Positions 13,353-58,219 of a stretch of DNA of 64,000 nucleotides are shown piece by piece (within the stretch, counting starts at the first letter, position 1; the number at the start of each line of letters is the position of its first letter). The notes below the pieces were generated by a model. It ran no database searches and was not told the DNA's origin. It worked only from the letters and a program-made list of their open reading frames with translations. Origin of the DNA: a virus; the IMG/VR virus record IMGVR_UViG_3300046008_000478, positions 1 through 64,000 of that record; one strand, 5' to 3'. Made by a program: the position numbers and the translations under genes.

Positions 13353-13874
13353 ATGCAGGAAATAAATCCAGTTGACGTTTGGGACGATGGCTTCGAGCAC
13401 GGTGTGCTGGATGACTACTCCACCCCGCCGTATGCCGAGGTCGCCATGCGCAGGCTGTGGCAGCTGGGCTGGATGTCGGCCAGGAAGATCCAGGCGCTGT
13501 TCGATGGCAAGGTGTCAGAGCACACGCACCAGGTGGCGTTGATTCGATGGGCCAAGGCGGCTGAGCTGTTGCGCCCAGAGCTGAAGCTGCTGTTTGCTGT
13601 GCCCAATGGTGGCATGCGCCACCCGATAGTTGCCGCTCAGCTGAAGGAGGAGGGGGTCAAGGCTGGGGTGCCAGATTTGATTTTGCCGATTCCGCGCTAC
13701 GGGTCCGGAGCCCTGTATATCGAGATGAAGATGCCAAAGGGTCGCGTCAGTCCAGAGCAGGCCATTTGGCTGCAGGACTTGGAAGACAACGGGAATACGT
13801 CGCTTGCCTGCTTCGGTTGGCATGAGGCCAGGCAGGCGGTTAAAGATTATTTAAGCGGAGCTACTGAAGAATGA
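13353..13874 (+). CDS. VRR-NUC domain nuclease
   Basis: SEHTHQ, LFAVPNGG, GVKAGVPDL, LYIEMK...SPEQ. Confidence 0.9.
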   Translation: MQEINPVDVWDDGFEHGVLDDYSTPPYAEVAMRRLWQLGWMSARKIQALFDGKVSEHTHQVALIRWAKAAELLRPELKLLFAVPNGGMRHPIVAAQLKEEGVKAGVPDLILPIPRYGSGALYIEMKMPKGRVSPEQAIWLQDLEDNGNTSLACFGWHEARQAVKDYLSGATEE

Positions 13875-14674
13875 GCTTCATCTTTGCATCTCAAAAATCA
13901 GCAGAGTTATTTACGGCAGCAACCGGGAAAAATTTGTCTGCCGACCAAGCGCTGCTATTGGGGGCAATGCTTTCCGCCAATGGATTTGATTGGACTAGAA
14001 GGCCGCACAACTTCTCTCAGCTTGCTGGGCGCAGGTTCGGAAGGCTGGAAGTTGTTGGTCCATCTGTGGACTACTGCGGAATCGTTAAGTGGCTCTGCAG
14101 GTGCGATTGCGGGGGTTACTCGCAGGTACACGGAGCAAATCTCAAAAGCGGACGCCAATTGTCATGCGGATGCCTTCGCGACGAGGTTAGGCAAATTGTT
14201 GCGGATAGTTCTCGCGTTACAAAAGAGCAAAAGCTTGAGACGCATAGGCGGGCAAATAGGAAATACCGGGTAACCGAGAAGAATCAAATACTGCAGCTCG
14301 AATACCGCCGGAAAAACAGAGACAAAATTTTAGCCAGAAGCCGCCTGCGGCATACGGAAAACCCAGAGGCGGCAAGGTCATCGGTAAGAAACCGCAGAGC
14401 GAGACTCAGAAATGCAGAAGGTAAACACAACCAATTCGACATAAGGATGATTGGCGATGAGCAGGGATGGGTTTGCCCTGGTTGTGATGTTGATATATCG
14501 AATGCGTACCACGCCGATCATGTTGTAGCTCTCGCAAATGGCGGGACAAATTGGCCATCAAACATACAACTCATGTGCGGCGCGTGCAACCTGAGTAAGT
14601 CAACGAAGACACTGGGTGTTTTTATGGCATTGAAGTGGCCAGACCTGTACAAAAACTACAAGGATATTGAATGA
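13871..14674 (+). CDS. Free-standing HNH homing endonuclease
   Basis: GRRFGRL..WLCRCDCG..SCGC domain plus CPGC...HADHVVALANGGTN..NIQLMCGACN.SK; AT-richer than neighbours. Confidence 0.88.
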   Translation: MSFIFASQKSAELFTAATGKNLSADQALLLGAMLSANGFDWTRRPHNFSQLAGRRFGRLEVVGPSVDYCGIVKWLCRCDCGGYSQVHGANLKSGRQLSCGCLRDEVRQIVADSSRVTKEQKLETHRRANRKYRVTEKNQILQLEYRRKNRDKILARSRLRHTENPEAARSSVRNRRARLRNAEGKHNQFDIRMIGDEQGWVCPGCDVDISNAYHADHVVALANGGTNWPSNIQLMCGACNLSKSTKTLGVFMALKWPDLYKNYKDIE

Positions 14675-15946: not shown

Positions 15947-16140
15947 CAGCCCTCATAACTGTCACTGCATGACAGCCACCCAGGGCTAAATGGGTGGGAC
16001 CCTTTAACTGCCGCCGGCGCGGGTATGTAGAGCCGGCACCTCTCTGAAAGCATTGCGTGCAGTGTTTCCAGAGTGGGGCTTTTTCACTTGCTTTTTGTGT
16101 GACTCAAACCCGGAGTATGGCGTTGAAAAATTCCACCGGA

Positions 16141-16552
16141 ACGCAGAGCAAAGCAGGCGTGACTCAGAACACGGTCAAACAACTGAGCGTTTTAAGGCGG
16201 TACTGACGATACAGCTAGGTGTCCCCTGGACCTAAACAGGCGCGTTACCAAAGGCGATATGTAGGTGAGAGCTTCGGCTCCGACCGGGTGAAAGGCCCGG
16301 ACCTTCAAGTATGGATCTGGTGTTGCACAAGTAAAACTGTTGCGGCTGAAGTTCCGGGTCCATTCTTGATGGTGTGCCGAAAGGCTGGGGCGAAGTTATA
16401 TAGCTCGTATCGCGTTTACTGCCCGAGATACCCGTGTAACCCACGACCGAGAGATACGCCGGGCGCAAGTGTGGGGACGCCATCAACCTATCCGCCAGTT
16501 CGCTGGCTACGCAGAAAGGGAACGCGCCTACTGCTTACGGTTTTGCTTGCGT
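16141..16552 (+). ncRNA. Putative large structured ncRNA (~410 nt)
   Basis: Nested long-range helices 16141-54/16540-52, 16238-46/16521-29, 16311-20/16354-63, 16366-75/16477-86; UUCG and GNRA-capped hairpins; no credible ORF. Confidence 0.65.
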
Positions 16553-16572
16553 GACGCCGACCAGAGGTCGGG

Positions 16573-16725
16573 CCATTACATAAGCGGCGGCGTTGAAGGA
16601 AACGCTACCGAGGAAACGAATCCTCTTCAGCGCTGAAGGCGAGGGGTAGGGATTGCAGGGGGCATTGTTTCAGACGCATGCCGCAATGCAAAGCCGGAAT
16701 CAAGCCCGGCCCGCTTATGTGATGG
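16573..16725 (+). ncRNA. tRNA-like structured element
   Basis: 15-bp closing stem, D-like arm GCGTT-GAAGGA-AACGC, T-like arm GCCGG-AATCAAGC-CCGGC. Confidence 0.55.
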
Positions 16726-16987
16726 TGGTTGCGAAAGCATGCGGATTAGTCCAGCCCTGGCCAGGACCCATCTGACATTCGGGAAAGACCGGGGATATCA
16801 AGCGAGCCGCCTGGCTGCTTCGGACATTGGGATCTGATCCCTGGACCGGCTCAGGCGACTAGACGGCTCACTTGATATTTTGGAGTGGATATGAAACTTT
16901 ATTGGCAGTCGCCGCTTTACTTCTGGCGCCCGGGGCTCTACCTGAAGATGGGCAATCGCCGCATTCGTTTATTCGCATGGCATTGAA

Positions 16988-19050: not shown

Positions 19051-19636
19051 TGGGGCGCTGGCCCTGGTGGGGTTGGGCCGGATGGCTGACATGGTGGCTT
19101 GGACAAAGCTGATGCGATCGCGGGTGGCAAGGCTGACCGAGCAGCGCGACGCCTTCGAGGAAAAGGCCTATGACCTCCATTTCCGCTGCGAGCACAGCAA
19201 GGAAGTCATGAAGGCGGAGTGCGAGATGGCCATGCAGGCTGCGCGCGACATGCATCTCCAGACCCTGGATAGCCTCCGGATCCATGCGACCTCAGAGATG
19301 CTGCGAATCCATAATGAGTACGCCAAGCGCGGGTTGGACAAGCGGTCCATGGATGTGCAGGCGGCCGTGCAGCTGGAGATGGATGGTCTCCGGGTGGACC
19401 TGGAGCGGGAGCTGGCGGAGCACAGGGCGTCAAATGATCGAGTGAAGATCAAGCTGCTGGAGACCGAGAAGAGCTACAGCCAGCTCCGGGAGTCCTATCA
19501 AACAGCGCGCAAGAAGGCTGACATGCTTGAGGCGCGAGAGGGGTCTTGGCAGAAACTGCACGGGGAAGCGGTGCGAGAGCGCAATACAGCAATGAGCGCC
19601 CTGGAAAATAGTTTGAAAAATACTGCAAATACTTGA
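19034..19636 (+). CDS. Coiled-coil hypothetical protein
   Basis: GGAG RBS; helical composition. Confidence 0.55.
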   Translation: MMKFIDGALALVGLGRMADMVAWTKLMRSRVARLTEQRDAFEEKAYDLHFRCEHSKEVMKAECEMAMQAARDMHLQTLDSLRIHATSEMLRIHNEYAKRGLDKRSMDVQAAVQLEMDGLRVDLERELAEHRASNDRVKIKLLETEKSYSQLRESYQTARKKADMLEAREGSWQKLHGEAVRERNTAMSALENSLKNTANT

Positions 19637-19734
19637 CACAAATCTTTTGCGCACCGTTATATTCAATGCAGCAATAAAGCCGGAGAGACACCACCGGCAC
19701 AACAAATAGCGGCACCTTTGATGGAAAGCCGCCT
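19633..19734 (+). promoter_or_regulatory. Late promoter 1 with conserved leader hairpin
   Basis: TTGACA-19nt-TATATT, then 45-nt element repeated at 44086. Confidence 0.65.
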
Positions 19735-19745
19735 TTGAAATTTAT

Positions 19746-20305
19746 TGCTGTCCATCCGCATGGTATTCACAAGATGCCAGCCGAATGGGTAGCTCAACCG
19801 GTAGAGCAGCTGAGGAAACTTGGCCTGTTGCGGGATCGTACCCCGCTCCATTGGTCGGTCGTCAAGGGGAGTTGCAGGAAACTGTAATACGACACCCACC
19901 GGGTTGCTTAAAACGCATATCCGGCCACTCTGGGCCTAGACCGGGCGGTTAGATCCGACCAGCAGCACCCCTGAAAGCGGGGAGCACCAATTTCGACTCT
20001 GGAGATACCGCCTACAGCCGGTGAAAGTCCCGGCAATCAGAGTCAGTCAGTTTGGGTTAAGCGCAAAGGATGCCGCCGTAAAGGAGGTCACACTGGCGCA
20101 GGGTTGGGGTCACCCGGCCGCCCGAAGACATTTACCCAGTGCTGCAGCATGTGGGTGGACGAGCCGCCATCGTAAGGGCGGAGTAGGGGCCGACAGTCGA
20201 AACTTGAACTTAACAGATGCCAGCTTGGGGCATGGTCGGAAACACAAGACGCGCAGGGGGTAGCCCTGACAAACATCTGGGTGTAAGCCCCGGAGCCAAA
20301 TACCA
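19746..20305 (+). ncRNA. Cluster of tRNA-mimicking ncRNAs
   Basis: Cloverleaf 19781-19858 with GAAA tetraloop in place of anticodon; T-arm-like hairpins followed by ACCA at 19986-89 and 20302-05. Confidence 0.6.
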
Positions 20306-20333
20306 AAAGCCACCCTAACCCGGTGGCTTTTTT
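20305..20333 (+). terminator. Intrinsic terminator closing ncRNA cluster
   Basis: AAAAGCCACC-loop-GGTGGCTTTTTT. Confidence 0.8.
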
Positions 20334-20427
20334 GTTTCAGCCGTCCGTAGAGTAGTCCAACCACTTTGTGATCACACAAGGGACTTGATCTCGGGCGGCG
20401 ATTTTTCTCCCTGGTCGCAAGACCTTT

Positions 20428-20452
20428 GCCTCGCTGCACGCGGGGCTTTTTT
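20428..20452 (+). terminator. Second intrinsic terminator upstream of packaging genes
   Basis: GCCTCGC-TGCAC-GCGGGGC-T6. Confidence 0.6.
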
Positions 20453-20463
20453 ACATCTGAACC

Positions 20464-20670
20464 ATGAACATCACACAAACTTGGGAGGAGCTTGGCGTCA
20501 AGCGCCCAGAGCGAGGTGATCACCCACACATGGATCCGCGCCAGGCAGCCGAAGAGTCAATGAAGAACTGCAGAGCATTGATTGTGGATTTGATCCACGC
20601 CGGGCGACTTCCTGCTCCTCCAATGGGCAAGAGCTACATCCCAGGAGCAGACGGGGTGAGGCTGGCATGA
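20464..20670 (+). CDS. Hypothetical protein
   Basis: ATGA-coupled to terS. Confidence 0.55.
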   Translation: MNITQTWEELGVKRPERGDHPHMDPRQAAEESMKNCRALIVDLIHAGRLPAPPMGKSYIPGADGVRLA

Positions 20671-44050: not shown

Positions 44051-44130
44051 GTGACGGAATTCACTCGTCACTGATAGAATGGTTCCAGCAACAAAGCGGG
44101 ACAGACAGCCCCCGCAAAACAAATAGCGGC
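44051..44130 (+). promoter_or_regulatory. Late promoter 2 with conserved leader hairpin
   Basis: GTGACG-18nt-TAGAAT (extended TG), 45-nt element 38/45 identical to 19669-19713. Confidence 0.65.
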
Positions 44131-44170
44131 CACTTCTGGGCCGACCTGTCTTCAAAATACCCAACAACCC

Positions 44171-44201
44171 AAGCCGCCTGGTTCTCAGTGCGGCTTTTTT
44201 T
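44171..44201 (+). terminator. Intrinsic terminator in leader of ejection-protein operon
   Basis: AAGCCGC-loop-GCGGC-T7. Confidence 0.75.
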
Positions 44202-44235
44202 GCATTTGCAATTAGCAAAGCGCCATGCAAATCAC

Positions 44236-44658
44236 ATGCTGAACTATCAATTCGACCCGGTATTTTCGTTTGTTCAATCGCGCATTCCAGGACTGGTGAG
44301 ATCGCCAGGCATGTCCGCTATTGGCCTTGAGCGCAATGGATCGATTGTTGCTGGCGCAGTCTACGAGGGCTTCAACGGGAAGAACATGTGGGTTCACCTT
44401 GCAGGCTTGCCTGGTCGGTCCTGGTTGAATCGCGAGTTTCTGCATGCTGGGTTCTGCTACCCATTTATTCAATGCGGAGTCCAGCGACTGAGTGGCTATG
44501 TGAACGCCAGTAACACTGAGGCTAGGCGCTTTGATGAGCACGTCGGCTTCCGCGAGGAGGCGCGTTTGCGTGGCGCAGCCCCCGATGGTGGCGATGTGAT
44601 TATTTATGTGATGCAAAAAGAGGATTGCCAGTTTCTCGGCAAGGTAAAAATATGTTAA
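44236..44658 (+). CDS. GNAT-fold acetyltransferase-like virion morphogenesis protein
   Basis: F.YPF.Q.GV.RL...V.A.N..A.RF..H.GF..E..LR. Confidence 0.8.
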   Translation: MLNYQFDPVFSFVQSRIPGLVRSPGMSAIGLERNGSIVAGAVYEGFNGKNMWVHLAGLPGRSWLNREFLHAGFCYPFIQCGVQRLSGYVNASNTEARRFDEHVGFREEARLRGAAPDGGDVIIYVMQKEDCQFLGKVKIC

Positions 44659-45833
44659 TTCCAAGTAAGCACTGCGGCTACCAGGCTAGCATTCGTCTGT
44701 ACCCCGGAAGCGGGAAGGGTGGCGGCGGAGGCTCCGCTCCAGCTCCAGACCCAGCCTTGATTGCGGCGCAAATTCGCTCCATGGGGATCCAGGACGAGGC
44801 GATCAAGACAGTGGTGGCCAACTCAAATGAGATGCTTCCTTTGCAAAAGGAGCAGACGAAGTTTGGCCTTGAATCTGCAAAGACCGCCTACCAGCAATCA
44901 CAGGATGACCGCGGTTGGGCGCTTGCTCGCCGCGGAGAGATGACTGGCGTCCAAGATGGAATGATCAAGGATGCCGCCGACTTCAATGCGGATGGCCGCC
45001 AGGAGCAGTTGGCTCAGAAGGCCGGAGAAGATGTCGCTGGGGCAATAAGTACATCCCAAGGGCAGTTGACACGGACACTGGCATCCCGCGGAATCAATGC
45101 CAATTCAGGTGCCGCGCTAACCGCCATGAATGGGTCTGCATTAACCGGAGCAATGGCTGGCGCCAGTGCTGTAAACAACACCCGAGAGGCTGCGCGCAAA
45201 GAGGGTTACGGCCTATCCGACCGGGCGAACAGTGCCCTGGCTGGGTATTCCACCCAGGCATCCGCATCGTCCGGTGCAGGCGCTGGGTTCGGAGCTTCCG
45301 GCGTAGCTACGGCAAATGCAGGGGCGACCGGAATGAATGCTGGATTTGGAACGGCCGGAGGAATGGCTGGGCAAATGGGATCCAATGCCGCTGGTATGTA
45401 CGGAACCCAGGCCAACTACTCCATCGCACAGAATCAAGCGAACAACCAGCCAGACCCCATGATGCAACTCATGGGTGGCGCGGCCATGAAGTACGCCATG
45501 TCCTCCGACGTCAACCAAAAGGAATCTATCTGCGCTACTGAGCCTGGATCAGCCCTGGAGGCGGTCAAAGCCCTGCCTGTGAGCGAGTGGCAGTACAAGG
45601 AAGATAGCCCAGCTAATGACGGAGGCAAGCGCCACACCGGACCCATGGCCCAGGACGTGCAGCGCGTCGTTGGAGAGAAGGCAGCCCCGGGCGGCAAGAT
45701 GATTGACTTGATCAGCCTGAATGGGCTGAACATGGCAGCCACCAAAGATCTGAACCAAAAAGTTGAGCAACTCACCCATCAGGTCAAGCGCCTGTCTGTA
45801 GGTGGCGTGCACCGAAAGGAATCCAATGTCTAG
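44652..45833 (+). CDS. DNA ejection/pilot protein with C-terminal peptidase S74 chaperone domain
   Basis: GKGGGG.APAPDP start, LASRG..NSG, G/A-rich; SD...KE.I...WQYK...HTGPMAQD. Confidence 0.75.
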   Translation: MLIPSKHCGYQASIRLYPGSGKGGGGGSAPAPDPALIAAQIRSMGIQDEAIKTVVANSNEMLPLQKEQTKFGLESAKTAYQQSQDDRGWALARRGEMTGVQDGMIKDAADFNADGRQEQLAQKAGEDVAGAISTSQGQLTRTLASRGINANSGAALTAMNGSALTGAMAGASAVNNTREAARKEGYGLSDRANSALAGYSTQASASSGAGAGFGASGVATANAGATGMNAGFGTAGGMAGQMGSNAAGMYGTQANYSIAQNQANNQPDPMMQLMGGAAMKYAMSSDVNQKESICATEPGSALEAVKALPVSEWQYKEDSPANDGGKRHTGPMAQDVQRVVGEKAAPGGKMIDLISLNGLNMAATKDLNQKVEQLTHQVKRLSVGGVHRKESNV

Positions 45834-47983: not shown

Positions 47984-50900
47984 ATGAGCATCCTCGACAA
48001 CACTGCCATTGAACAACAGCTACTGGCCATGGGCGAGAAAAAGTCCGCCGGAGATGCGCCAGCCGCGCCCAGGTCCGACAGCGCAGCCAGCGGGCCACAA
48101 GCTTTTGTTCAGCGGTATGCAGACCTTGCCGCAACCACCGGGGCAAAGCTCGGTGTGGCGCCAGAAGTTCTGCTTGGTCAATGGGGGCTGGAGACAGGCT
48201 GGGGCAAGAGCATCATCCCGGGAACCAACAACCTGGGCAACATCAAGGGTAAGAATGGCCCCATGGCCACCGACAACCAAACTGGCTCGCGTGACTCCTA
48301 CCGGGCGTATAAGGACGACGCTGATTTTGGCAATGGCTTCACTGCATTTATCGGAAACTCAGAGCGCTACCAGGGCGCCCTGAATTCAGGCGCAGATGCT
48401 GGCGCGTACTTCTCTGCCCTCAAGAAAGGTGGCTACGCAGAAGACCCCGCCTACGTGCAAAAGGGTGTAAGCGCAACTCGTCTTGCGTCACAATTCCTGG
48501 GTGGGCGTGCTCTACCTGCAGGGCAGGTGAGTGCAACGGAGGCGCCAACCGAGGCTCCGCAGTACCACTGGGGTGCACAAGATGGTCCAACGCGCACCGT
48601 TGCCACTAAGCCAGCCAGCTTCGCTGAAAAGGCGGCAGACACCGCTATTTCCCTGGGATCTGGGTTGCTTGGTGGCGCCAAGAGTTTGACGGATGTATTT
48701 GGCGCAGACAACTCCGCATCACAATTTCTTGGCGAGCAATCCAAGAATGTTGACGGTTACACATCGGATGAGCGCAAAGCGGAGCGCGCAGCCAGTCAGG
48801 AAAAGATCAAGCAAGCTGAGCTGTACGGTTCTGCATGGGATGAGATCAAGGCCAACATCAGTGCATTTGCAGATGCCCCCATTGACATCGTAGTGGGCGC
48901 GGTTGGATCCAGTGCCCCAACCCTGTTGAGCATGTTCATTCCGGGGCTTGGTCAAACTGCTGCTGCACGCCTGGTGATGGGCGGGATTATGGGTGCCGCA
49001 CAGGGGACTGGCGCTGGCAAAGGCAGCATCTACGAGGCTGTGGAAAATAAGCTGCTGGAGTCCGGCATCGACCAGGACACAGCAAAGAAAACAGCGGCGG
49101 CAGCGCAAGCATACGACGGCCAGAATGGCGGAATGATCGCAGCCAACGGAATCATGGGCACCATCGCTGGACTGACTGGTGTCGAGGGCTCGCTCGCCAA
49201 AATACTGGGAAAGAAGGTCGCAGAAGGCGCCGCAGAAAAAGCAGCCCCTGGACTGATTAAAACTTTTGCTAAGGGTATTGCGCAGGAGTCCCCAATAGAA
49301 GGTGCCCAAGGCGGCCTTGAGCGAGTCTCTGGGAATGTTGCTCTGCAAAACCAAGGGTACGACACTCCAACATTCCAAGGGGCTGCCGGACAGGCGGCTA
49401 TGGAAAGCTTGGCATCCGCACCAATGGGTGGCGGCTTTGCTTTGCTGAGTCGCAACGGCCAGCCAGCCGGCCCAATCACACCACCCAATCCACTGGAGGA
49501 GGCAGCCAAGGCGCCTGGCGCTGTACTGTCGCGCGCAGCCATTGCGCCGGATGACATCGCCCAGCGCGCCCATGAGATTGAAGGCGAACTCAAAGACAGC
49601 GGCGGCATGCAGGCCCTGCGCTCCATTGGTGCACAACACGTTGCCCCATTCCTAGAGGCCCTGTCGATTGCCAAGGACAAGCGCCTGCCGGCAGCCGCGC
49701 GCCAGGAAGCACTGGACACCATCAACCTGGGCATGCAGTGGATGGCTGACGGCAAGACCGCGGACCAGCCAGGCAATGGATCTCCATTCAGCACCAGCTT
49801 GGTGACGCAGTCAGCACCCACTCAGCCGGGCACGGACCTAGCCACCACAGCGGGCGGAGCCCTGACCAATCCTGGCATGCCGCAGGCTTTCGATCCCAAC
49901 ACGATCGATGGCGAGGTCACGCGCGTGGACAACATGCTGGATGGCCCCAAGGCATTGCCGGCGCCACCAGGCCCAGCACTCACCAATCAAACAACTCAGA
50001 CGCCTGCACCCGCAGGCGTTTCTACTTCTGCACCACAGGAAATCACCAATGTCACTCAAGCCCCTCAGTCCAAGCAAGCAGCGCAAGAAGGACAAGAAGC
50101 ACCCGCAGCTGCCACCCCAGCAGTAGACACTGCGCGCACGCAGGTTTCGGCGCCCAAGGTATCTATACCCACTGGCAAGGGAACAGCTCAGTCACGAAAG
50201 CGCCGGGCCCAGCTCGATGCCATGGTTGTCAGCGGATTCGACACGGTGGAGCGCCGCGACGATGGCTTCTACCTGATCAACCACAAGTCCAACGAAGAGA
50301 TGCGCCTGGATGGCATGGGTGACGCGCAGACTGCCCGGGTAGCCATTAAATTCAAGATGGATGCGGACTCGCACGTAGCGCCATCATCCCCTCTGAATGA
50401 CAAGAAGGCGCCTTCCGAGGCTCAGATTGAGGCCGGCAACTACCACAAGCCAGTCACATCAATCAACGGCTTCAAGGTCCGTATTGAGAACCCCAATGGG
50501 TCAACCCGAAGCGGCACCTCGCCCGATGGCAAGAAGTGGTCCAGCACCATGGCCGCCCACTATGGCGAGCTCGAAGGCACGCTGGGCGCAGATGGCGACA
50601 AGGTCGATGTGTTCATTGGCAGCCGCCCGGACAGCGACAAGATCTATGTGATCGACCAGAAGAACAAGGACGGCAGCTTCGACGAGCACAAGGTGATGAT
50701 GGGCTACCAAAGCCTGGAAGCCGCCAAGGCCGGCTACCTGGCCAATTACGAAAAGGGCTGGACCGGGATGGGCGCCGTCACCGAGATGGGTGTGGCGGAG
50801 TTCAAGGCCTGGGTGAAGTCGCAAGAGGCGCTGAAGCCAGTGGCGTACACTGACCCCAAAACAACAGGGGTAGAGAATGACGAACGAGGATCTGACGCAG

Positions 50901-53900
50901 CAGGCGCTGGACTGGATACGCAATCGGAAGGAATCACTGGAGTCAGCAGCAGCACTGGAGAAGGAGTGCGGAATCCAGCTTCGACAAAGGGGGCTGGATC
51001 CACTGGATCTTCCGGAGCCACTCAGCTCGATGGTAATGAAGCTACTGTCGCAAGAAACGCAGAGCTCCTAGCTCGGGTACGAAGCGCTATTGAGGGGCTG
51101 CGCGCTCGGTATCAGGCGCAGCTCTCCGTCGCAAGTACCGATGCGGAGCGTAAAAAACTCCTGCACGAAATATCTCGACTCCCCGATGTAAACGACCCTA
51201 GTGGAGAGTTGCTTCAGGGGTACTCAAATGTTGCCTCTGCATGGGAGCGCGCTTTTGGTCAATCCGTTGGTGCTTATGTAGACGGAAGGTCGTCGGCAGA
51301 CGATGGCTTCCAGATGGGAAGCGATGCACTCGTAAACCTGCTTAACCAACAGATGCCATTGCAGTGGACGATGGCCCATGAATTCAAGCACTTGAGCGAG
51401 TTTGTGCCGAGCCTGAAGAAGCTGTACGACAGAATTTTCAGCCTCATCCCACAGGGTGCGCGGTCAGAATACCTTAGCTATCTGCACCGTACAGGCCAGG
51501 CGTCCACCAAATCTCTCGATGCGGCCACTGCCGCGGATATCGCCAAGCTGCGCCAAGAGATGGTTGCAGACTTCCTTGGGCAGCGCTTTACCGACAAGGC
51601 TTGGCTTGAGCAGCTTGCAAAGCAAAAGCCAAATCTTTTTGGTGAGTTTGTCCGCGACTGGTTGAGCATACTCAACAACGCCATACACGAGCTTATTTCC
51701 GCACTGTCAAAGGGGAATAACCCAAAAGACATTGACCGACTGATGCTGGGTCATCTGAAGCAGCTCCAGGAGATGAAACTACTGGCGGTTGATGTGGCTA
51801 CAGAGTGGGCAGAGCGCAACCCAAGGATGTCAAAGAGCACAGGCGCAAGCGAAATACTGCATAGCTCCCGCATCGACTCCATCAACGAGCTCGGCAACCT
51901 CAACCTGGACGCCATGTCTATCGATGAAGACCTGGACATGGTCGAGTTCCTGAAGGCGCAGGCGGAGTTTGATGCACAGCGGCCAGCAGCCAAGGTCGAT
52001 CCCAAGCGCGGCGGGCCGGTGCAGCCGCGCGCGGATATTGCCGATGCCGAGATCCAGGCGCATGGCCTGGCGGCCGAGGATGCTTATGGCGACGCGACCT
52101 GGGTGCATACCCACAAGTCAGCCGTCATGCTGAACACCACGGCCCGCAACCTGTACAAGCAGGGCGACGAGTCCCGCATCGATCTGCTGCAAGAGCAAGA
52201 CGGCAAGTGGGGCACCGAGGGTGGCATCCGCGGCACCTGGGTCGGCAATGACGGCATGTCTACCGGCGGAACTACCAGCCTGAAGATGGCTCAGAAATTC
52301 GTCAGCCGATTCATTGCGTCCAAGGATTTATTCGCACGCAAATTTGACATTGCGCAGACTTACTCCAGCGCATCCAGGGCCAACCTGCTGAATGCCTGGA
52401 ATGCCTTGAACAAGATGGATGGCGTGCGCAAGTATGCCAAGGCCGACAAGACAGCCATGTCCATGAAGGACATCGCGACCCAGTTGGGTGTGACGAAGTT
52501 CTATGACGTGTCCACCTTCACTGAGCGCCAAAGCCCAACCGAATCATTCCTGATGGTTGAATTCACCAACAAGGAGACGAGCGAAACCCAAGAAGCCAAC
52601 CTGACCATCGAGAAGGATGGCGACCAGCGCTTTGCCACCGCCCACACCGGAGCATTGAACCGCAACGGACTGGGCGGCGCCTTCTACCAGATGGCTGTGG
52701 AGTACGCTGCACGCAACCGGCTGGTGATTCGGCCTGATGATTCGCTGTCTGGCGTGAACACCTACCGGCGCACCGAGCAGATGCTGGCGTCCGCTATGCG
52801 CTCGGGAAAGTCCAACATCATGGTTCCGCATTCGGTGCAGCGGGTCTACGGATTCCAGAACGATGCCAAGACGCAAGATGAGCACGATGACAACGTAGTG
52901 CGCTTGCTGCTGGCCGGGCTGCGCAACGCACGCGAGCTGGCGCCTGAGATGGGGCTGCTGAACTACCACCCTGAAACCGACACCTTCACCCTGAAGAATG
53001 GGAAAGATGCGACCGGAATTGTGGATCGCATGCTGGCCAACGAGGATGCTCGTGCATTTGGCCTGGGCCGCAGTACCCTGGCGCGCGCCGTGCTGACAGA
53101 GATGGCATTGCTTGGGCAGTTGGACGTCAAGTCCATCCAGTCCATCGGAACCCCGCTCTTGTACAGCGCCCGCGAGGATGCTGAGCTGGAATACAAGCTG
53201 GTCGAGGACCAGTACAAGGGCACGCCTCAGTGGATGAAGGCGCCAGATGGCAGCCAGACACAGCTCACCCAGCGCCAATGGGTGCAGGTGCGCACGCCTC
53301 AATTCAAGGAATGGTTTGGCGACTGGGAAAAAGCCCATGCTACCGGCGGCGTCTGGGCAACAAAAGAAGATGTGTCCAAGGTCGTGGGCTCAGATGGTGA
53401 GCCTCTGGTGGTTTACCACGGGACCGACAAGGGCGGATTCATGGCGTTCAACCAGCCCGGCGGCACCAAGCGCGGCGACCTGGGAGTCTTCACGACCAGC
53501 AATGAAGGCATGGCTCGCAGCTATGTCCGCAAGGGTCGGCCGCAGGATATGACGCCACCAGTTGGGCTAGGCGACCTGGAGGAAATTGGCTACGCTTTTG
53601 AGCAAGGATTCCGGATCGATGGTGACTTCTACGATAGCGAAGAGGAGGCTCGCGATGCGGCGCAAGAGGGGGATGTGATTGCTCCAGCTGTGCGCGCCAT
53701 GGATATTGATGGCTATTTTATAGATGGGCCACGGGAGACTGGTCATTTCTTTGCAACCATGGACGATGCGGTGGAAGAGGCGCTTGGCTTGTACGACGGA
53801 GCAACCGGAATCTCCACAATTTACGCCGCCTTCGCCAACATCCGCCACCCAAATGAGACCAATTTTGAAGGCGCACTCTGGGGTGGCGAGCGACCAGAGC

Positions 53901-56900
53901 AGTACGTTGTATCGATTGATGGGGATCTGCAGTCGCGCGCGGATGGTAAGCAATACTTCACCCGAGAAGAGGCCGAGGCGTTCGCCAAAGAGCATCCCAA
54001 CCCACTCTACCAGGATGACGATGGCAGTGACTACATCGAGCCAGCTCAAGACCACTACCAAACCACCGACGACGCAGTGCGCGAAGGCCTGAAGCATGGC
54101 CACGACGGCACGATCATTCGCGAGGTTATTGATGACGGCGGCGGAATTGGCTACGACGACATGCCTTCCGATGTGTTTGTGGCCAACAAGCCAGAGCAGT
54201 TGAAGTCGGCAGACTGGAACACGGGTGAGTTTGGATCGTCGGATGACCTGCGGTACAGCGAGAGACTCATCGAAGCATCGTCAGCGCAGCACCAAATGGA
54301 GATCGAAAGGGAGGAGAGGGAGATTGCCGCCACCACTCGATTGTCTGCCGCAGAGCAGAGCTCCATCGCCATCGAGGCTGAACTCATTGGCATACCAAAA
54401 AGCAAGCTTGAGCTTGAGGTGCGTCGTATTAAGGCGCAGTTCCCAGCATCTGCGGGCTGGGCGCCCATGGAATTCGACAAGATCAATAAAGCCGAGTACG
54501 CCAAGAGGGGCGTCCTGATAATGCGCACTGTCGAGTTCAAGAAACAGCCTTACGATTTCCATCTTGGGCGCGATGGAAAGGACGACACGTCTACACACAA
54601 CAAGCGGGTGACGTCAGTTGCCAAAGGCATAAGTGACGAGATTATTGGACTGTCCAACAAGGCTAAACAAGGTGACAAGAACGCGCAAATCACCATGGAC
54701 CAGATTGGCTGGTACAGCAAGGTAGCCGCCATGTTGCACCATCAGTTTGGCGGCTTCGCAGACTTCCTTGCTCAGCTCATGGGGCCAACCAGCGCCAATA
54801 CGCCAGTGGAGGGCAATGTCAAGTACGCTATGTCCGCACTCAAGTCGGCAATGTCTGGCAAGTGGGATGGCCTCATCGCGGACACAATACGCTGGAATGA
54901 AGGCGTCATGCAAGCGGCTGCCGGATTGGATGCGGTGATCGATGCTAATCGCGCAAAACCCAAGGCAGAGCGCCTGACCGGGAAAGCTTTAGCTCAGACC
55001 GTGGAGTTCAAGGATGCCATGGCAGTAGTTGCAGCGGCCGCACCCTATCAAGGAGAGGTGCCACAGCAAGATAGCGGAGCTAAATTCGGCATGGCCACCC
55101 AGGGTGTTGTAGAAATACTGGCTGGCATTTGGAGTGACTTCCAGCGCGGTGATGCACCCAAGACCAAGAACTACTACCAAAACCTGATTGGCCGCCAGTT
55201 CACCGGCGCCACCATCGACGTCTGGGCGGCGCGCACGCTGCGCAGAATGGCTGGATTGCTGCGCCTGCCAACGTCGGCAGAGAAGGGCGTCGCTGGCAAC
55301 ATTGGGGCCAAGCTAACCCCGGGCGCGGAGTTTGGCTTCGGGCAGGAGGCGTTTGTTAAGGCTGCTGAAAACCTGCGCAACTCAGGCATTGAGGAATTTG
55401 CCAACACCACGCCGGCTGATGTGCAGGCGATGATTTGGTTTAGCGAGAAAGAGAGTTGGGCTCGCAGCAACTGGACCACCAAAATTGGCGAAGGCGGCTC
55501 TGCTGAAGCAGAATTCAATCTCCAGGGCAATGCCGATCGAGATGGACTGGAGGATGCGCGTAGGATGGCTCGCAAGGGACTGCCTCACACCGGAAGCACC
55601 AAGCCAAACAAGACGGAGGAGGGCGCCCAACAAGCATCCATCAATGCTGGCGTGGGGCAATTCCCATCCGCCCGCGAAACCCCTCAGTACAAAGAACGCC
55701 TGGCGAAAATCATCGCCAAGGCGGTGCGCGCCCGCAATGAAGCCCGCGTGCAGTTTGAGTCCATGCGCGGCGCAGCCGACCGCTGGATTGCTGGGGTGAC
55801 CCCGGCCACGGACTTCACGCCAACGGACGCCACCATGGCCGAGGTTGGCGCAGAGCTGGAGTCAAAGGTTGCCATGGGCGAAGATGCCCACAAGGTCTTG
55901 GCATTCAAAGCGCTGCCGACCATGGGTCGTTACGGCTATGACGAGCGCTCCATTGACTTCGAGGGCGTCACCCGCCAAGGCTACAACGGCGTCGATATGC
56001 TGAAGCCGCTGCTTGAATTAGCCAAGGACAAGGCGCAGGATGGCCTGCTGTTTGGACGCGTCTTGCGCGCGGATGAGGATATCGACTACCTGCGGCACCG
56101 CCCTGGCCTTGAACTCTATCTGGCTAAAGGCACAACGATGGAGAAGGCGCAGCCACTGCTGGACAAGCTCACGGAACTTGGCTTCCAGCAGTTCACATTC
56201 GTGGTGGATCCAGTGCGGACCCCGGGCGCCTTATCCGGCAAGATGGGGGATGTTGTTGGCCTGCGCTACATCTTCACTCCGGAATTTGCGTTGCGCGAAC
56301 CCAACCCTGAGTACGGCGGCGACCAGACTTGGGCGCCTGGAGCCTTGACCGATGACCAGATCCGGGGCAGAATGTTAGCGAAGGCTGATGAGCTGCATGG
56401 CCTCTCTGATGACCTACAAATGATTGCAGGCGTTTCCTCTGTTGAGAGGCGCCATTACGAGGCTAATGTTTATTTTTGGGGTGATTATGACAACGCAATT
56501 GCAAGACTTGGAGCGAGGGCTGGAAATAGTGACTCGGAAAAATCATGGAGCGGACAGCCCTTACGCTCAGGGCTTGAGGGCGCAGATCGCCGCCGCGAAA
56601 TGGACTCAGGCTCAGAAGACGCAAAGTCCTTCGCAGCTCGAAGAGACGTACTTCGGGGGGACTCGGAGCCAGCCTTCAGCCGCCGGGACGAGGGATATAG
56701 CGGACGGGATGGAGCGGATGGCTCGGTCTCGATTAAAGGAGCTGTCCACTACGGACGGCAAGCAGGCCTAAGCGTACTGTCCGGGTCCTCTAGTGGGACC
56801 GGAATCAAAGGCGCAGAGCAAGACCGCTTGAGTGCACCAGGAGTAGACCCCCGCATCAAGCGCCGGGTCTATTTTTACATCCCAACATCAGTCGGAATTC

Positions 56901-58219
56901 CCCAGTCAGAGATTGGACTTGGGGCGCACGTCTACATGGCAGACCTGGACGGCCTGTACAACCCGCACACCACCACCAAACCTATTGCCAAGTCCGGCAA
57001 TGCGCTCGAAACGGCTGTGCTGGATGCTGGATACAAGGGATATGTAAACCCAGAGCAGGGATCCATTGTGGTGCTGGACCAGGATGTTCCAGTGAGGTAC
57101 GCTGGCATTAGCTCGCAGCACGCCATTACTCCGCGCGTGGTGCAGCGGGTGCAGCAGCGCATCATGACTCGCCTGGAGCGCTCCGAGCTGGTGCGCAAGC
57201 CGGTCGGCAACGAGATGCTGCAAATCATCGGGGCACGCGCGGCCATCGATGCCGCGGCCCCATCGTTCAAGCTGCAGTATGGGGATGCCCGGGTAAATCA
57301 GGATGAATCTGCTGCGGCAGATGGCGCCCTGGCCTCCGCCGGGTCGACCTTTCAGTTTGGCGAGGCGCGCTACAGTGCCCGCGACCTGGGCTTCTACTCT
57401 GAGCTGTCAGCCCAAATGGACAAGGCCACCATGAAGCAGGCCCCGGCCGGAGCATGGAAGTCGTTCATCGGCGCCCTGGCCCAGAAGGGTGTAAAGAAGG
57501 ATGAGGTCGAGTGGACCGGCATCAATGACTTCCTGGATCTCCAGGAGGGCAAAGTGTCCAAGGAGCAGATCCAGGAATACCTGCGCGGCAATGGCGTACA
57601 GGTGGAGGAGGTTGTGCTCGGAGATGAGCCGGCAATCAAGACAGTTGAGGCTGCCAAGAAGTATCTGCTTGAAAGATTCAAGGAAGATCCGGAAGAGCGC
57701 TATGGGTACAGTGATGATGCGGACTACATCTCAATCGCCAATGAGTGGCAGCTTGGAGACACTGGCCCCAACAGCGTATCAAAGTACCACCAGTACACCC
57801 TGCCTGGTGGCGAGAACTACCGCGAGGTGTTGCTGACGCTGCCTCGTGAAGATGATAAGACCAAGTCCGCGAAGGCTGCATTTGAAGAAGCCAAAAAGAA
57901 ATTTGATACAGATGGGTCGCAGCCCAACTACTTCAATCTGAAGATGGCAGAGATGGATCTATCAAGCGCCCAGCGTAACGTTGGGGGAGCGTACAAATCA
58001 AGCCATTGGGACCAGAAGAACGTCCTTGCCCACATCCGCCTGAATGACCGCACCGATTCGACAGGAGCTCGCGTACTTTTTGTAGAAGAAGCGCAGAGCG
58101 ATTTTCAGCAGGACTACCGCAAGTCAAAAGAAGCAGTTTCCAAGGCTGTTGAAAGTGACTTCAATGGGATAATTGAGCGCATGAAAAAGGCTGGTGTTTT
58201 GGAGGTGAATTGTGATTAA
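47984..58219 (+). CDS. Giant polyvalent virion protein, N-terminal part (3411 aa)
   Basis: FlgJ/glucosaminidase muramidase, inorganic-pyrophosphatase-like, HExxH, GNAT-like, ADP-ribosyltransferase-like (VVYHGT) and other modules. Confidence 0.88.
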   Translation: MSILDNTAIEQQLLAMGEKKSAGDAPAAPRSDSAASGPQAFVQRYADLAATTGAKLGVAPEVLLGQWGLETGWGKSIIPGTNNLGNIKGKNGPMATDNQTGSRDSYRAYKDDADFGNGFTAFIGNSERYQGALNSGADAGAYFSALKKGGYAEDPAYVQKGVSATRLASQFLGGRALPAGQVSATEAPTEAPQYHWGAQDGPTRTVATKPASFAEKAADTAISLGSGLLGGAKSLTDVFGADNSASQFLGEQSKNVDGYTSDERKAERAASQEKIKQAELYGSAWDEIKANISAFADAPIDIVVGAVGSSAPTLLSMFIPGLGQTAAARLVMGGIMGAAQGTGAGKGSIYEAVENKLLESGIDQDTAKKTAAAAQAYDGQNGGMIAANGIMGTIAGLTGVEGSLAKILGKKVAEGAAEKAAPGLIKTFAKGIAQESPIEGAQGGLERVSGNVALQNQGYDTPTFQGAAGQAAMESLASAPMGGGFALLSRNGQPAGPITPPNPLEEAAKAPGAVLSRAAIAPDDIAQRAHEIEGELKDSGGMQALRSIGAQHVAPFLEALSIAKDKRLPAAARQEALDTINLGMQWMADGKTADQPGNGSPFSTSLVTQSAPTQPGTDLATTAGGALTNPGMPQAFDPNTIDGEVTRVDNMLDGPKALPAPPGPALTNQTTQTPAPAGVSTSAPQEITNVTQAPQSKQAAQEGQEAPAAATPAVDTARTQVSAPKVSIPTGKGTAQSRKRRAQLDAMVVSGFDTVERRDDGFYLINHKSNEEMRLDGMGDAQTARVAIKFKMDADSHVAPSSPLNDKKAPSEAQIEAGNYHKPVTSINGFKVRIENPNGSTRSGTSPDGKKWSSTMAAHYGELEGTLGADGDKVDVFIGSRPDSDKIYVIDQKNKDGSFDEHKVMMGYQSLEAAKAGYLANYEKGWTGMGAVTEMGVAEFKAWVKSQEALKPVAYTDPKTTGVENDERGSDAAGAGLDTQSEGITGVSSSTGEGVRNPASTKGAGSTGSSGATQLDGNEATVARNAELLARVRSAIEGLRARYQAQLSVASTDAERKKLLHEISRLPDVNDPSGELLQGYSNVASAWERAFGQSVGAYVDGRSSADDGFQMGSDALVNLLNQQMPLQWTMAHEFKHLSEFVPSLKKLYDRIFSLIPQGARSEYLSYLHRTGQASTKSLDAATAADIAKLRQEMVADFLGQRFTDKAWLEQLAKQKPNLFGEFVRDWLSILNNAIHELISALSKGNNPKDIDRLMLGHLKQLQEMKLLAVDVATEWAERNPRMSKSTGASEILHSSRIDSINELGNLNLDAMSIDEDLDMVEFLKAQAEFDAQRPAAKVDPKRGGPVQPRADIADAEIQAHGLAAEDAYGDATWVHTHKSAVMLNTTARNLYKQGDESRIDLLQEQDGKWGTEGGIRGTWVGNDGMSTGGTTSLKMAQKFVSRFIASKDLFARKFDIAQTYSSASRANLLNAWNALNKMDGVRKYAKADKTAMSMKDIATQLGVTKFYDVSTFTERQSPTESFLMVEFTNKETSETQEANLTIEKDGDQRFATAHTGALNRNGLGGAFYQMAVEYAARNRLVIRPDDSLSGVNTYRRTEQMLASAMRSGKSNIMVPHSVQRVYGFQNDAKTQDEHDDNVVRLLLAGLRNARELAPEMGLLNYHPETDTFTLKNGKDATGIVDRMLANEDARAFGLGRSTLARAVLTEMALLGQLDVKSIQSIGTPLLYSAREDAELEYKLVEDQYKGTPQWMKAPDGSQTQLTQRQWVQVRTPQFKEWFGDWEKAHATGGVWATKEDVSKVVGSDGEPLVVYHGTDKGGFMAFNQPGGTKRGDLGVFTTSNEGMARSYVRKGRPQDMTPPVGLGDLEEIGYAFEQGFRIDGDFYDSEEEARDAAQEGDVIAPAVRAMDIDGYFIDGPRETGHFFATMDDAVEEALGLYDGATGISTIYAAFANIRHPNETNFEGALWGGERPEQYVVSIDGDLQSRADGKQYFTREEAEAFAKEHPNPLYQDDDGSDYIEPAQDHYQTTDDAVREGLKHGHDGTIIREVIDDGGGIGYDDMPSDVFVANKPEQLKSADWNTGEFGSSDDLRYSERLIEASSAQHQMEIEREEREIAATTRLSAAEQSSIAIEAELIGIPKSKLELEVRRIKAQFPASAGWAPMEFDKINKAEYAKRGVLIMRTVEFKKQPYDFHLGRDGKDDTSTHNKRVTSVAKGISDEIIGLSNKAKQGDKNAQITMDQIGWYSKVAAMLHHQFGGFADFLAQLMGPTSANTPVEGNVKYAMSALKSAMSGKWDGLIADTIRWNEGVMQAAAGLDAVIDANRAKPKAERLTGKALAQTVEFKDAMAVVAAAAPYQGEVPQQDSGAKFGMATQGVVEILAGIWSDFQRGDAPKTKNYYQNLIGRQFTGATIDVWAARTLRRMAGLLRLPTSAEKGVAGNIGAKLTPGAEFGFGQEAFVKAAENLRNSGIEEFANTTPADVQAMIWFSEKESWARSNWTTKIGEGGSAEAEFNLQGNADRDGLEDARRMARKGLPHTGSTKPNKTEEGAQQASINAGVGQFPSARETPQYKERLAKIIAKAVRARNEARVQFESMRGAADRWIAGVTPATDFTPTDATMAEVGAELESKVAMGEDAHKVLAFKALPTMGRYGYDERSIDFEGVTRQGYNGVDMLKPLLELAKDKAQDGLLFGRVLRADEDIDYLRHRPGLELYLAKGTTMEKAQPLLDKLTELGFQQFTFVVDPVRTPGALSGKMGDVVGLRYIFTPEFALREPNPEYGGDQTWAPGALTDDQIRGRMLAKADELHGLSDDLQMIAGVSSVERRHYEANVYFWGDYDNAIARLGARAGNSDSEKSWSGQPLRSGLEGADRRREMDSGSEDAKSFAARRDVLRGDSEPAFSRRDEGYSGRDGADGSVSIKGAVHYGRQAGLSVLSGSSSGTGIKGAEQDRLSAPGVDPRIKRRVYFYIPTSVGIPQSEIGLGAHVYMADLDGLYNPHTTTKPIAKSGNALETAVLDAGYKGYVNPEQGSIVVLDQDVPVRYAGISSQHAITPRVVQRVQQRIMTRLERSELVRKPVGNEMLQIIGARAAIDAAAPSFKLQYGDARVNQDESAAADGALASAGSTFQFGEARYSARDLGFYSELSAQMDKATMKQAPAGAWKSFIGALAQKGVKKDEVEWTGINDFLDLQEGKVSKEQIQEYLRGNGVQVEEVVLGDEPAIKTVEAAKKYLLERFKEDPEERYGYSDDADYISIANEWQLGDTGPNSVSKYHQYTLPGGENYREVLLTLPREDDKTKSAKAAFEEAKKKFDTDGSQPNYFNLKMAEMDLSSAQRNVGGAYKSSHWDQKNVLAHIRLNDRTDSTGARVLFVEEAQSDFQQDYRKSKEAVSKAVESDFNGIIERMKKAGVLEVNCD
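50877..51071 (+). CDS. Candidate nested +1-frame small protein
   Basis: AGGGG SD 7 nt before ATG; globular helical sequence while main frame is S/G/T linker. Confidence 0.45.
   Translation: MTNEDLTQQALDWIRNRKESLESAAALEKECGIQLRQRGLDPLDLPEPLSSMVMKLLSQETQSS
56487..56771 (+). CDS. Candidate nested +1-frame small protein
   Basis: GGGGTGA before ATG; MTTQLQDLERGLEI...HGADSPYAQGLRAQIAA; main frame R/G/S/D linker. Confidence 0.45.
   Translation: MTTQLQDLERGLEIVTRKNHGADSPYAQGLRAQIAAAKWTQAQKTQSPSQLEETYFGGTRSQPSAAGTRDIADGMERMARSRLKELSTTDGKQA

Follow-up and report, generated by a model that had tools for sequence, protein, structure and literature searches.

Units of the transfer RNA (tRNA) type are a known ingredient of the late leaders and tRNA clusters of phages. 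The genes ileZ-argN-argO lie downstream of pR' in the Stx phage 933W, and RNA C and RNA D are part of the tRNA cluster of T4. We analyzed a related unit in a virus record of IMG/VR (IMGVR_UViG_3300046008_000478; 79,245 bp, 96% complete, from lake/freshwater metagenomes), of which positions 1 to 64,000 are referred to below as the window. The unit is a tRNA-shaped element of 75 nucleotides (nt) and, like its phage counterparts, it is located in a non-coding stretch of variable content between the regulatory region and the late/packaging genes, in which the units would be transcribed together. Unlike them, it cannot decode, and the units at this locus sit between conserved non-tRNA modules that belong to no described family. 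The element is a repurposed or decaying tRNA and not a new kind of molecule. Very probably, it is the derivative of a tRNA gene, one base away from a detectable tRNA and non-decoding as written, in other words a tRNA-derived non-decoding cassette.

A second point of reference is provided by large non-coding RNAs. The linker of GOLLD sometimes contains tRNAs, and GOLLD and ROOL are often found near tRNA islands (Kretsch et al., bioRxiv 10.1101/2024.12.08.627333). The RNA that carries the element resembles GOLLD (RF02032) and ROOL (RF03087) in being a large non-coding RNA of phages/prophages with lake metagenomes among the sources, and it resembles GOLLD in the presence of tRNAs in a variable region. 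However, it is smaller (around 335 to more than 650 nt) and represents a string of cassettes instead of one conserved fold. The GOLLD model found no match in the genome at E<=10 and cmscan of the window and the surrounding region was negative as well; for ROOL both cmscan of window and region and a direct search were negative, although the control of the direct search remained silent too. The accession RF01998, which has also been cited for GOLLD, stands for a piece of a group II intron. The YrlA-type Y RNAs of bacteria and phages likewise contain a non-decoding tRNA-shaped module within a larger non-coding RNA. In YrlA this module is permuted, being closed at the acceptor end and open on the side of the anticodon stem, and a Ro60 gene is found alongside. 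In the element described here it is the anticodon stem that is capped and the acceptor that opens to the flanks. A genuine Y RNA system was rejected on the absence of PF05731 (TROVE/Ro60) from all six frames of the 79-kb genome, the control being positive in Deinococcus and Bacteroides. The phage genome was also searched for a CCA-adding enzyme and for RtcB/tRNA repair functions, and these were absent.

The element had been pointed out before on basis of the letters alone (the sequence-only reading), as a non-decoding tRNA mimic with a GNRA tetraloop in place of the anticodon loop, and the letters quoted for it are present in the window as given. Its position is:

19782..19856, + strand: tRNA-shaped element, variable slot 1 (fold of the isolated sequence and ARAGORN drawing)

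For the stretch of 75-78 nt in isolation, the fold of lowest energy is the cloverleaf (-26.5 to -27.5 kcal/mol). In the ARAGORN drawing the acceptor (19782-19789 / 19847-19854) has 8 pairs, of which one is a G.G mismatch and another a G.U, and U8 and A9 connect it to the D arm (19792-19807; stem GCUC/GAGC, loop AACCGGUA), which is followed by A26. The anticodon arm (19809-19824) has 5 pairs and a six-base loop, GGAAAC. A variable loop of 5 nt (CUGUU) then leads to the T arm (19830-19846), with the stem GCGGG/CCCGC and the 7-base loop AUCGUAC. The fold and the drawing confirmed two features that had been noted earlier, namely a D arm with GG and a T arm of 5 bp with a 7-nt loop, and the sequence bears out the third, the lack of a CCA after the element. 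Position 73 pairs with -1, and in the isolated fold the acceptor helix extends through this pair into the flanks and continues after a 3-nt bulge.

The element shares with canonical tRNA (RF00005) the 75-nt four-arm cloverleaf, the 5-nt variable loop, the tRNA-type D arm and most nucleotides of the core. In standard tRNA numbering U8-A14, A15-U48 and G18 G19 with U55 C56 are kept, and so are A21, G46 and G53-C61. All stems are paired except at 1-72, which makes one mismatch in around 21 pairs. The tertiary set of elbow and core is complete except for 54-58, as read from the letters, the formation in three dimensions being a separate matter. The element differs from canonical tRNA by a six-base loop without U33 (U33 and one anticodon-loop base are lost), by A54/U58 instead of U54-A58, by G.G at 1-72, by a helix that runs past 73 and by the loss of the free discriminator and of the CCA end. 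The defects are found at both working ends and the determinants of the L-shape are intact, which is suggestive of a shape that has been kept. For the anticodon loop, the sequence-only reading holds in part. The outer G and C of GGAAAC are able to pair, which yields a 6-pair stem with a GAAA cap at 19815-19818, but the same letters also represent a tRNA loop that is one base short, with GAA at the anticodon and A at position 37.

Both tRNA detectors reject the element, ARAGORN by a small margin. With default settings ARAGORN called no tRNA, neither in the window nor in the whole record, as had been anticipated (pseudo or none), and by this measure the phage has no other tRNA either. At 94% of the threshold the element ranked first among the candidates of the genome and had the best score; its label was tRNA-?(Phe|Phe)(aa), and the loop was given as six bases long. 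Any single base inserted in silico before the GAAA led to a default call of tRNA-Phe(GAA). With the Rfam tRNA model nothing in the genome matched at E<=10, and the control was positive in 14 of 14 genomes. We counted as a near-tRNA every six-base-loop candidate that passes the ARAGORN default after a 1-nt insertion. Dinucleotide shuffles of the genome amounting to 9.5 Mb contained two of these, or around 0.017 per genome, and the chance rate is lower still for a near-tRNA inside a 0.7-kb non-coding RNA; the rate for any candidate at 94% of the threshold was around 0.24 hits per shuffled genome. Considering the fact that only two equivalent candidates occurred in 9.5 Mb, the cloverleaf is real and beyond chance. 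Regarded as a candidate member of the tRNA class, the element has the cloverleaf arms and falls short on the 7-base loop with U33, the CCA/discriminator end and the thresholds of both detectors. Its 'Phe(GAA)' label is derived from the loop letters only, and the isotype origin is not established beyond them. The D arm matches real phage tRNAs at 92% over 25 nt, and the tRNA at locus L007 at 77% over 48 nt, but at the DNA level the similarity to real tRNAs is limited to this generic D arm; in a search of E. coli genomes the 75-nt element had no match. The L007 tRNA itself is an ordinary tRNA.

The stretch that contains the element is poor in open reading frames (ORFs). A gene that ends at 19636 borders it upstream and a small ORF (20464) downstream, and the genes that come next were identified as terS (20667), terL (21274) and portal (24198) using PHROGs. 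The phage encodes a tyrosine integrase (70.9-71.4 kb, the sole integrase match in the genome) and is therefore temperate. An attP site carrying a tRNA fragment was rejected as identity of the element, given the distance of around 50 kb to the integrase and the non-canonical T loop. According to the predictions, the element lies inside a non-coding RNA of around 665 nt that would extend from promoter to terminator directly upstream of terS/terL/portal. The earlier claim that it is embedded in a larger structured transcript is supported by this predicted unit, which we refer to as the leader RNA. Its parts, and those of a related unit elsewhere in the window, are as follows (CM, covariance model):

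19633..19663, + strand: promoter-like site (TTGACA at 19633-19638, 19-nt spacer, TATATT at 19658-19663), with a predicted start near A19670
19662..19752, + strand: conserved 5' leader module (CM R1, 94.4 bits)
19773..19781, + strand: anchor motif GATGCCAGC, the left edge of slot 1 just 5' of the tRNA-shaped element; the same 9-mer occurs in the homologue L047 (see below)
19859..19925, + strand: two more slot-1 hairpins, as predicted by the fold, without counterpart in L047
19915..19998, + strand: conserved core (alignment; CM R2, 77.7 bits)
19995..20044, + strand: variable slot 2, folded as a 7-bp stem GACTCTG/CAGAGTC around a T-arm-like hairpin GCCGG-TGAAAGTC-CCGGC
20049..20301, + strand: 3' domain, with AGTTTGGGTTAAGCGC at its start and, at its end, a T-arm-like hairpin (20277-20293, loop TGTAAGC) and then AGCCAAAT
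20305..20331, + strand: intrinsic terminator (10-bp stem, T run)
20428-20446, + strand: second terminator, before the small ORF and terS
44079..44160, + strand: paralogue of the 5' module (CM R1, 77.4 bits; 84% over 45 nt)

The 5' module consists of a long-range stem P1 (19669-19678 / 19741-19750) around two hairpins (GCCGG...CCGGC and GCGGC...GCCGC) with an A-rich linker in between. CM R1 gave 74.9 bits in L047 and 81.7 bits in L032-L035. Between the window and L047, 4 of the 10 pairs of P1 have changed and all of these changes are compensatory; for the two hairpins the covariation among the four sequences is weak. The second copy in the window belongs to a unit of around 115 nt (44079-44200) with a promoter-like TGTGAC..TAGAAT, the module and a terminator (~44168-44200). 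It precedes the next gene block, and a gene for an acyl-CoA N-acyltransferase (44188-44658) comes immediately after the terminator. The similarity of several separate metagenomic contigs is limited to 45-65 nt of this 44-kb module, beyond which they diverge from the window; considering that they match the module alone, it must also be present in other contexts or in relatives. The promoter layout is shared as well: a like arrangement (T-T/G-N-A-C-A, 18-19 nt, TATATT or TAGAAT, then AGCAAYAAAG...) precedes both the 44-kb paralogue and the RNA of L047.

In lambda the late leader is organized as pR'-6S RNA-tR', and HK022 and HK639 possess put antiterminator RNAs (Hwang et al. 2022, PMC9378689). 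As far as the chassis is concerned, the 5' module is comparable to the put RNAs: it likewise measures around 80 nt, has two hairpins at the start of the transcript and is located upstream of terminators and late genes. A put-like logic is also seen in its presence at two places in the phage (19662-19752 and 44079-44160), each time after a promoter and before terminators. An identity of the put type was nevertheless rejected, as neither CM R1 nor the sequence found anything in HK639, where a putL-like RNA is annotated. The 'Q-like' identity of the genes upstream was dropped too, since Pfam and PHROGs gave no support. The cultured Escherichia phage HK639 (our L164, with a terS related at 48%) itself has a gene-free late leader of around 950 nt (44265-45217) behind a Q-like gene, with four annotated terminators, and could be a laboratory counterpart for long late leaders.

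The part between the anchor and the core is slot 1, which measures 144 nt in the window and contains, besides the tRNA-shaped element, the two hairpins listed. One of these has a 7-bp stem (19871-19877 / 19882-19888) and again a GAAA cap, and it has the 8-mer AGGAAACU in common with the anticodon arm of the element. The sequence GGAAAC is found three times in the 668 nt of the leader, where 0.17 copies would be expected from the genome rate; tetraloop-capped hairpins number three against 0.65 in shuffles, with comparable counts elsewhere in the genome. The core has the layout ACTCTG..TAG.CC.....GTTA..TC, followed by a T-loop-like hairpin and AGC(A)CCAATTT. It scored 96.5 bits in L047 and 89.8 bits in L048 with CM R2, and compensatory changes were found at 4 of 20 predicted pairs. 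Judging from its fold, the 50-nt slot-2 element of the window may be an internally deleted tRNA remnant. Within the 3' domain the first 16 nt (20049-20064) are identical in L048 (360-375). The helix 20102-20108/20113-20119 stays paired in a relative recovered in run X4 (G20103A together with C20118T, while C20119T leads to G.U), and among lake-metagenome contigs the hairpin 20277-20293 retains 5 pairs and an unchanged loop despite 8 substitutions and one insertion. The whole RNA (667 nt) folds better than its shuffles (z = -3.1). The ORFs that overlap it have no Pfam match, and related metagenomic contigs show 1-nt indels and segment swaps at this place. Rfam cmscan of the whole window at gathering thresholds, and of 19400-20500 at E<=10, retrieved terminator look-alikes only.

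Homologues were collected with nhmmer and blastn over around 125 loci around relatives of terS and with DNA patterns in IMG/VR and in GTDB genomes. The closest terS relatives, mostly from Logan and ENA, show 60-70% identity, and the closest terS fragment (L039) as well as L004 have genes upstream and no RNA slot. Two true homologues of the leader RNA were obtained, L047 and L048, and L032-L035 carry the 5' module only. The pattern scans of IMG/VR and GTDB genomes yielded no further family member, nor did CM R1 and CM R2 in 686 kb of related loci, and blastn of the leader RNA against GenBank phages gave no match; the leader RNA family is rare. Matches to the GAAA pattern at L005, L012, L013 and L015 were discarded as they lie inside an open reading frame, and L156 and L157-L162 were set aside as chance hits.

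The RNA of L047 (around 335 nt) has the same promoter layout, 5' module, GATGCCAGC, core and terminator, and its slot 1 consists of a single hairpin (GTGC-GCAA-GCAC). The contig of L048 starts inside the RNA, with the core, three tandem tRNAs in slot 2 and the start of the 3' domain. The tRNAs of L048 are:

116-190: tRNA-Met(CAU), Rfam 44.6 bits
196-281: tRNA-Tyr(GUA)
287-359: tRNA-Gly(UCC)

All three have 7-base loops, U33 and an encoded CCA. Two of the three are below the ARAGORN default and have odd T loops (AGCGACU, CUCGAUA); the tRNA-Met(CAU) has a C1.A72 mismatch as in bacterial initiator tRNA, and its D loop lacks GG. Both L047 (~2380-2470) and L048 (~690-760) also have a conserved structured piece, GCGCACTC...GAGTGAGT...CCCAGCGC-GCAAG-GCGTC, which is located downstream of the RNA before the gene preceding terS and is absent from the window.

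A contig of 3,153 nt from a lake metagenome (run X6) matches 19683-19764, 19843-19986 and 20130-20258 of the window. In this relative the body of the tRNA-like element (19765-19842) is replaced by 80 unlike bases and the stretch 19987-20129 by 218. The run X4 relative continues from 19990 almost directly into the 3' domain, which means that nothing occupies its slot 2. Contigs from runs X3 and X5 that are otherwise identical to the window stop at around 19762-19767 and restart at 19838, so that the element is not covered; their depth is 3-7, and they are not usable as evidence. Among the family members described here, the tRNA-like element is seen as content of slot 1 in this phage only.

As the scaffold persists while the content of the slots differs (hairpin, tRNA look-alike, real tRNAs, other inserts or nothing), the leader is, as judged from these comparisons, a conserved chassis of 5' module, core, 3' domain and terminator with at least two exchangeable slots. 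This affects the proposal of a non-decoding tRNA mimic. According to the sequence-only reading, homologues with normal loops and random decay would mean an ordinary tRNA pseudogene. Homologous RNA indeed contains CCA-ended tRNAs with 7-base loops, but these occupy slot 2, whereas the equivalent of slot 1 is a plain hairpin in L047 and 80 unlike bases in the X6 relative. The element is tRNA-shaped and cannot decode as written, so this part of the proposal stands; with normal tRNAs in the family, though at the other slot, an ordinary decaying tRNA stays a live reading.

The full reading that we favor is that of a tRNA-derived non-decoding cassette in a modular late-leader RNA that functions as a processing handle. 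Blended over its parts, we regard it as evenly balanced between right and wrong, and the part that concerns a selected function of the processing-handle type is put forward tentatively. A tRNA gene once carried in the leader would be the ancestor of the slot-1 element, which would have been kept as a tRNA-shaped handle recognized by host tRNA-processing enzymes. RNase P would cut at its 5' side and 3' trimming enzymes would act behind it, which would separate the 5' module from the remaining leader and yield a stable, uncharged, non-decoding tRNA-like RNA. Cutting sites of this kind are known: mascRNA at the 3' end of MALAT1 and the tRNA-like parts of the TMERs of MHV68 are processed by RNase P/RNase Z. 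They are likewise tRNA-shaped, non-decoding elements in a longer transcript, but they are eukaryotic or viral-in-eukaryote. A more far-reaching version, in which the element is a selected member of an undescribed 'sealed-anticodon' class of tRNA look-alikes, exchanged as cassettes before packaging genes, with the leader as a dedicated carrier/processing scaffold and the mimic as processing punctuation or decoy, seems doubtful to us.

Several points weigh against a kept and processed element. The sealed loop and the fold are without conservation or covariation support. The folding energy of the isolated element is ordinary (z = -1.1 relative to shuffles). GAAA is also the commonest GNRA loop, and 'Phe' follows solely from the GAA in the loop. 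The number of defects (one stem mismatch and few changes at functional sites) is compatible with a young pseudogene, and given that the events are so few, the pattern of defects does not differ statistically from that of such a pseudogene. The determinants for RNase P are weak: there is no RCCA, and 1-72 and -1/73 continue the helix. In a model of the full transcript AUGGG (19785-19789) has an upstream partner, UCCAU (19751-19755), with a probability of 0.5-0.6, and its pairing with the downstream UCCAU of the acceptor stem (19847-19851) is at around 0.25, while the anticodon and T hairpins stay above 0.9. Considering that energy models leave out the tertiary contacts of tRNA, this competition does not refute the cloverleaf. 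At the level of the transcript, the promoter spacer of 19 nt is non-optimal, which is why the consensus scan made no call, and the leader RNA is a prediction from the sequence.

These points lead to the alternative that survives best, a plain relic: a phage tRNA gene, possibly tRNA-Phe, that became inactive only recently, when it lost 1 nt of the anticodon loop and acquired a few substitutions, and that has no present function. The element is one base short of a tRNA that ARAGORN would call, and both the missing evidence for conservation and the unremarkable energy z-score fit a relic. The homologous loci point to a high turnover, with working-looking tRNAs, a hairpin or nothing, and slot 2 of the window resembles a more eroded tRNA remnant. 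On the other hand, the four stems are still paired with the single mismatch mentioned, the bases of the tertiary core are intact with defects at the working ends only, and the short loop closes as a favorable G-GAAA-C cap that recurs 60 nt downstream, in a leader with an excess of GGAAAC; none of these arguments is statistically decisive. All in all, we consider a mere relic possible but rather unlikely.

Release of the element, as in the processing-handle reading, could also serve another end. As a decoy or sponge, the tRNA-shaped RNA would bind host proteins that recognize the tRNA body, such as defence nucleases that cleave tRNA or enzymes of tRNA modification or processing, while it could be neither used nor cleaved at the anticodon loop. 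This agrees with the retention of the L-shape determinants next to a sealed anticodon loop, and changes in the anticodon loop have been put forward as a means by which phage tRNAs counter host anticodon nucleases (van den Berg et al. 2023, PMC10264068). However, sealing of the anticodon loop would prevent the binding of nucleases that read this loop, and the word decoy has 0 occurrences in that publication. The element is moreover present in single copy in an RNA predicted from sequence, and Ro60, a CCA-adding enzyme or RtcB, which would point to a tRNA-centred system, are lacking in the phage genome. We therefore consider a decoy improbable.

Somewhat less probable still is the opposite view, namely that the element is never released and forms an integral domain of one 665-nt fold of the GOLLD/ROOL kind, with the elbow and the GAAA making tertiary or quaternary contacts. 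The acceptor helix that runs into the flanks and the lack of CCA would agree with this, as would the many GNRA-type and T-loop-like hairpins, the several covarying helices, the z of -3.1 of the transcript and the ability of GOLLD to carry tRNAs in its linker. Yet L047 lacks the element and the X6 relative has it swapped while both keep the scaffold, which implies that the scaffold does not need it. Furthermore, neither GOLLD nor ROOL was matched, no tetraloop-receptor motif was seen on reading the sequence, and the family members are built from cassettes and range from ~335 to >650 nt.

It is very improbable that the element is a still working tRNA, CCA-tailed and charged, with an odd six-base decoding or a role as non-ribosomal aminoacyl donor. 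ARAGORN accepts a class with six-base loops and labels the element Phe|Phe, with GAA in the loop, but U33 is missing, the T loop has A54/U58, 1-72 is G.G and position 73 is paired. In addition, no CCA is encoded, although all three tRNAs of L048 encode it, the Rfam tRNA model rejects the element and the phage has no CCA-adding enzyme. A chance cloverleaf in a GC-rich structured spacer, for which the z of only -1.1 and the ~0.24 ARAGORN hits per shuffled genome at the 94% threshold could be cited, is hardly credible in view of only 2 six-base-loop, one-insertion candidates in 9.5 Mb, the tRNA-type D arm and the tRNA slot in a homologue.

Some other features of the phage may be mentioned. The window contains a second ORF-poor, hairpin-rich stretch of around 0.9 kb (15950-16890) with UUCG, GAAA and T-loop-like caps and without Rfam match. 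In the fold of one part (16572-16726; z = -4.67) a closing stem of 15 pairs encloses five hairpins, and a T-arm-like hairpin is stacked on this stem. Adjacent genes for a VRR-NUC and an HNH endonuclease (13353-14674) are located upstream of the non-coding blocks. The ORF at 47984-58219 (3411 aa) encodes a polyvalent protein with glucosaminidase, InPase, LPD37 and ART-PolyVal domains, and these domains ruled out an N4-type virion RNA polymerase, and thereby an N4-like class, as an interpretation of this ORF.

Phage tRNAs are now debated as counter-measures to defences that target tRNA, and large phage RNAs that carry tRNAs, like GOLLD, are without known function. If the element described here were only a relic, its value would be smaller, and it would document how fast tRNA genes turn over in a slot of the late leader, together with an uncatalogued family of leader RNAs. 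In either case, a single scaffold is seen with a hairpin, with a disabled look-alike of a tRNA, with real tRNAs or with other inserts, and these four cargo states represent a compact natural series, which poses the questions what role leader RNAs with tRNA-shaped cargo play and whether non-decoding tRNA bodies serve a purpose.

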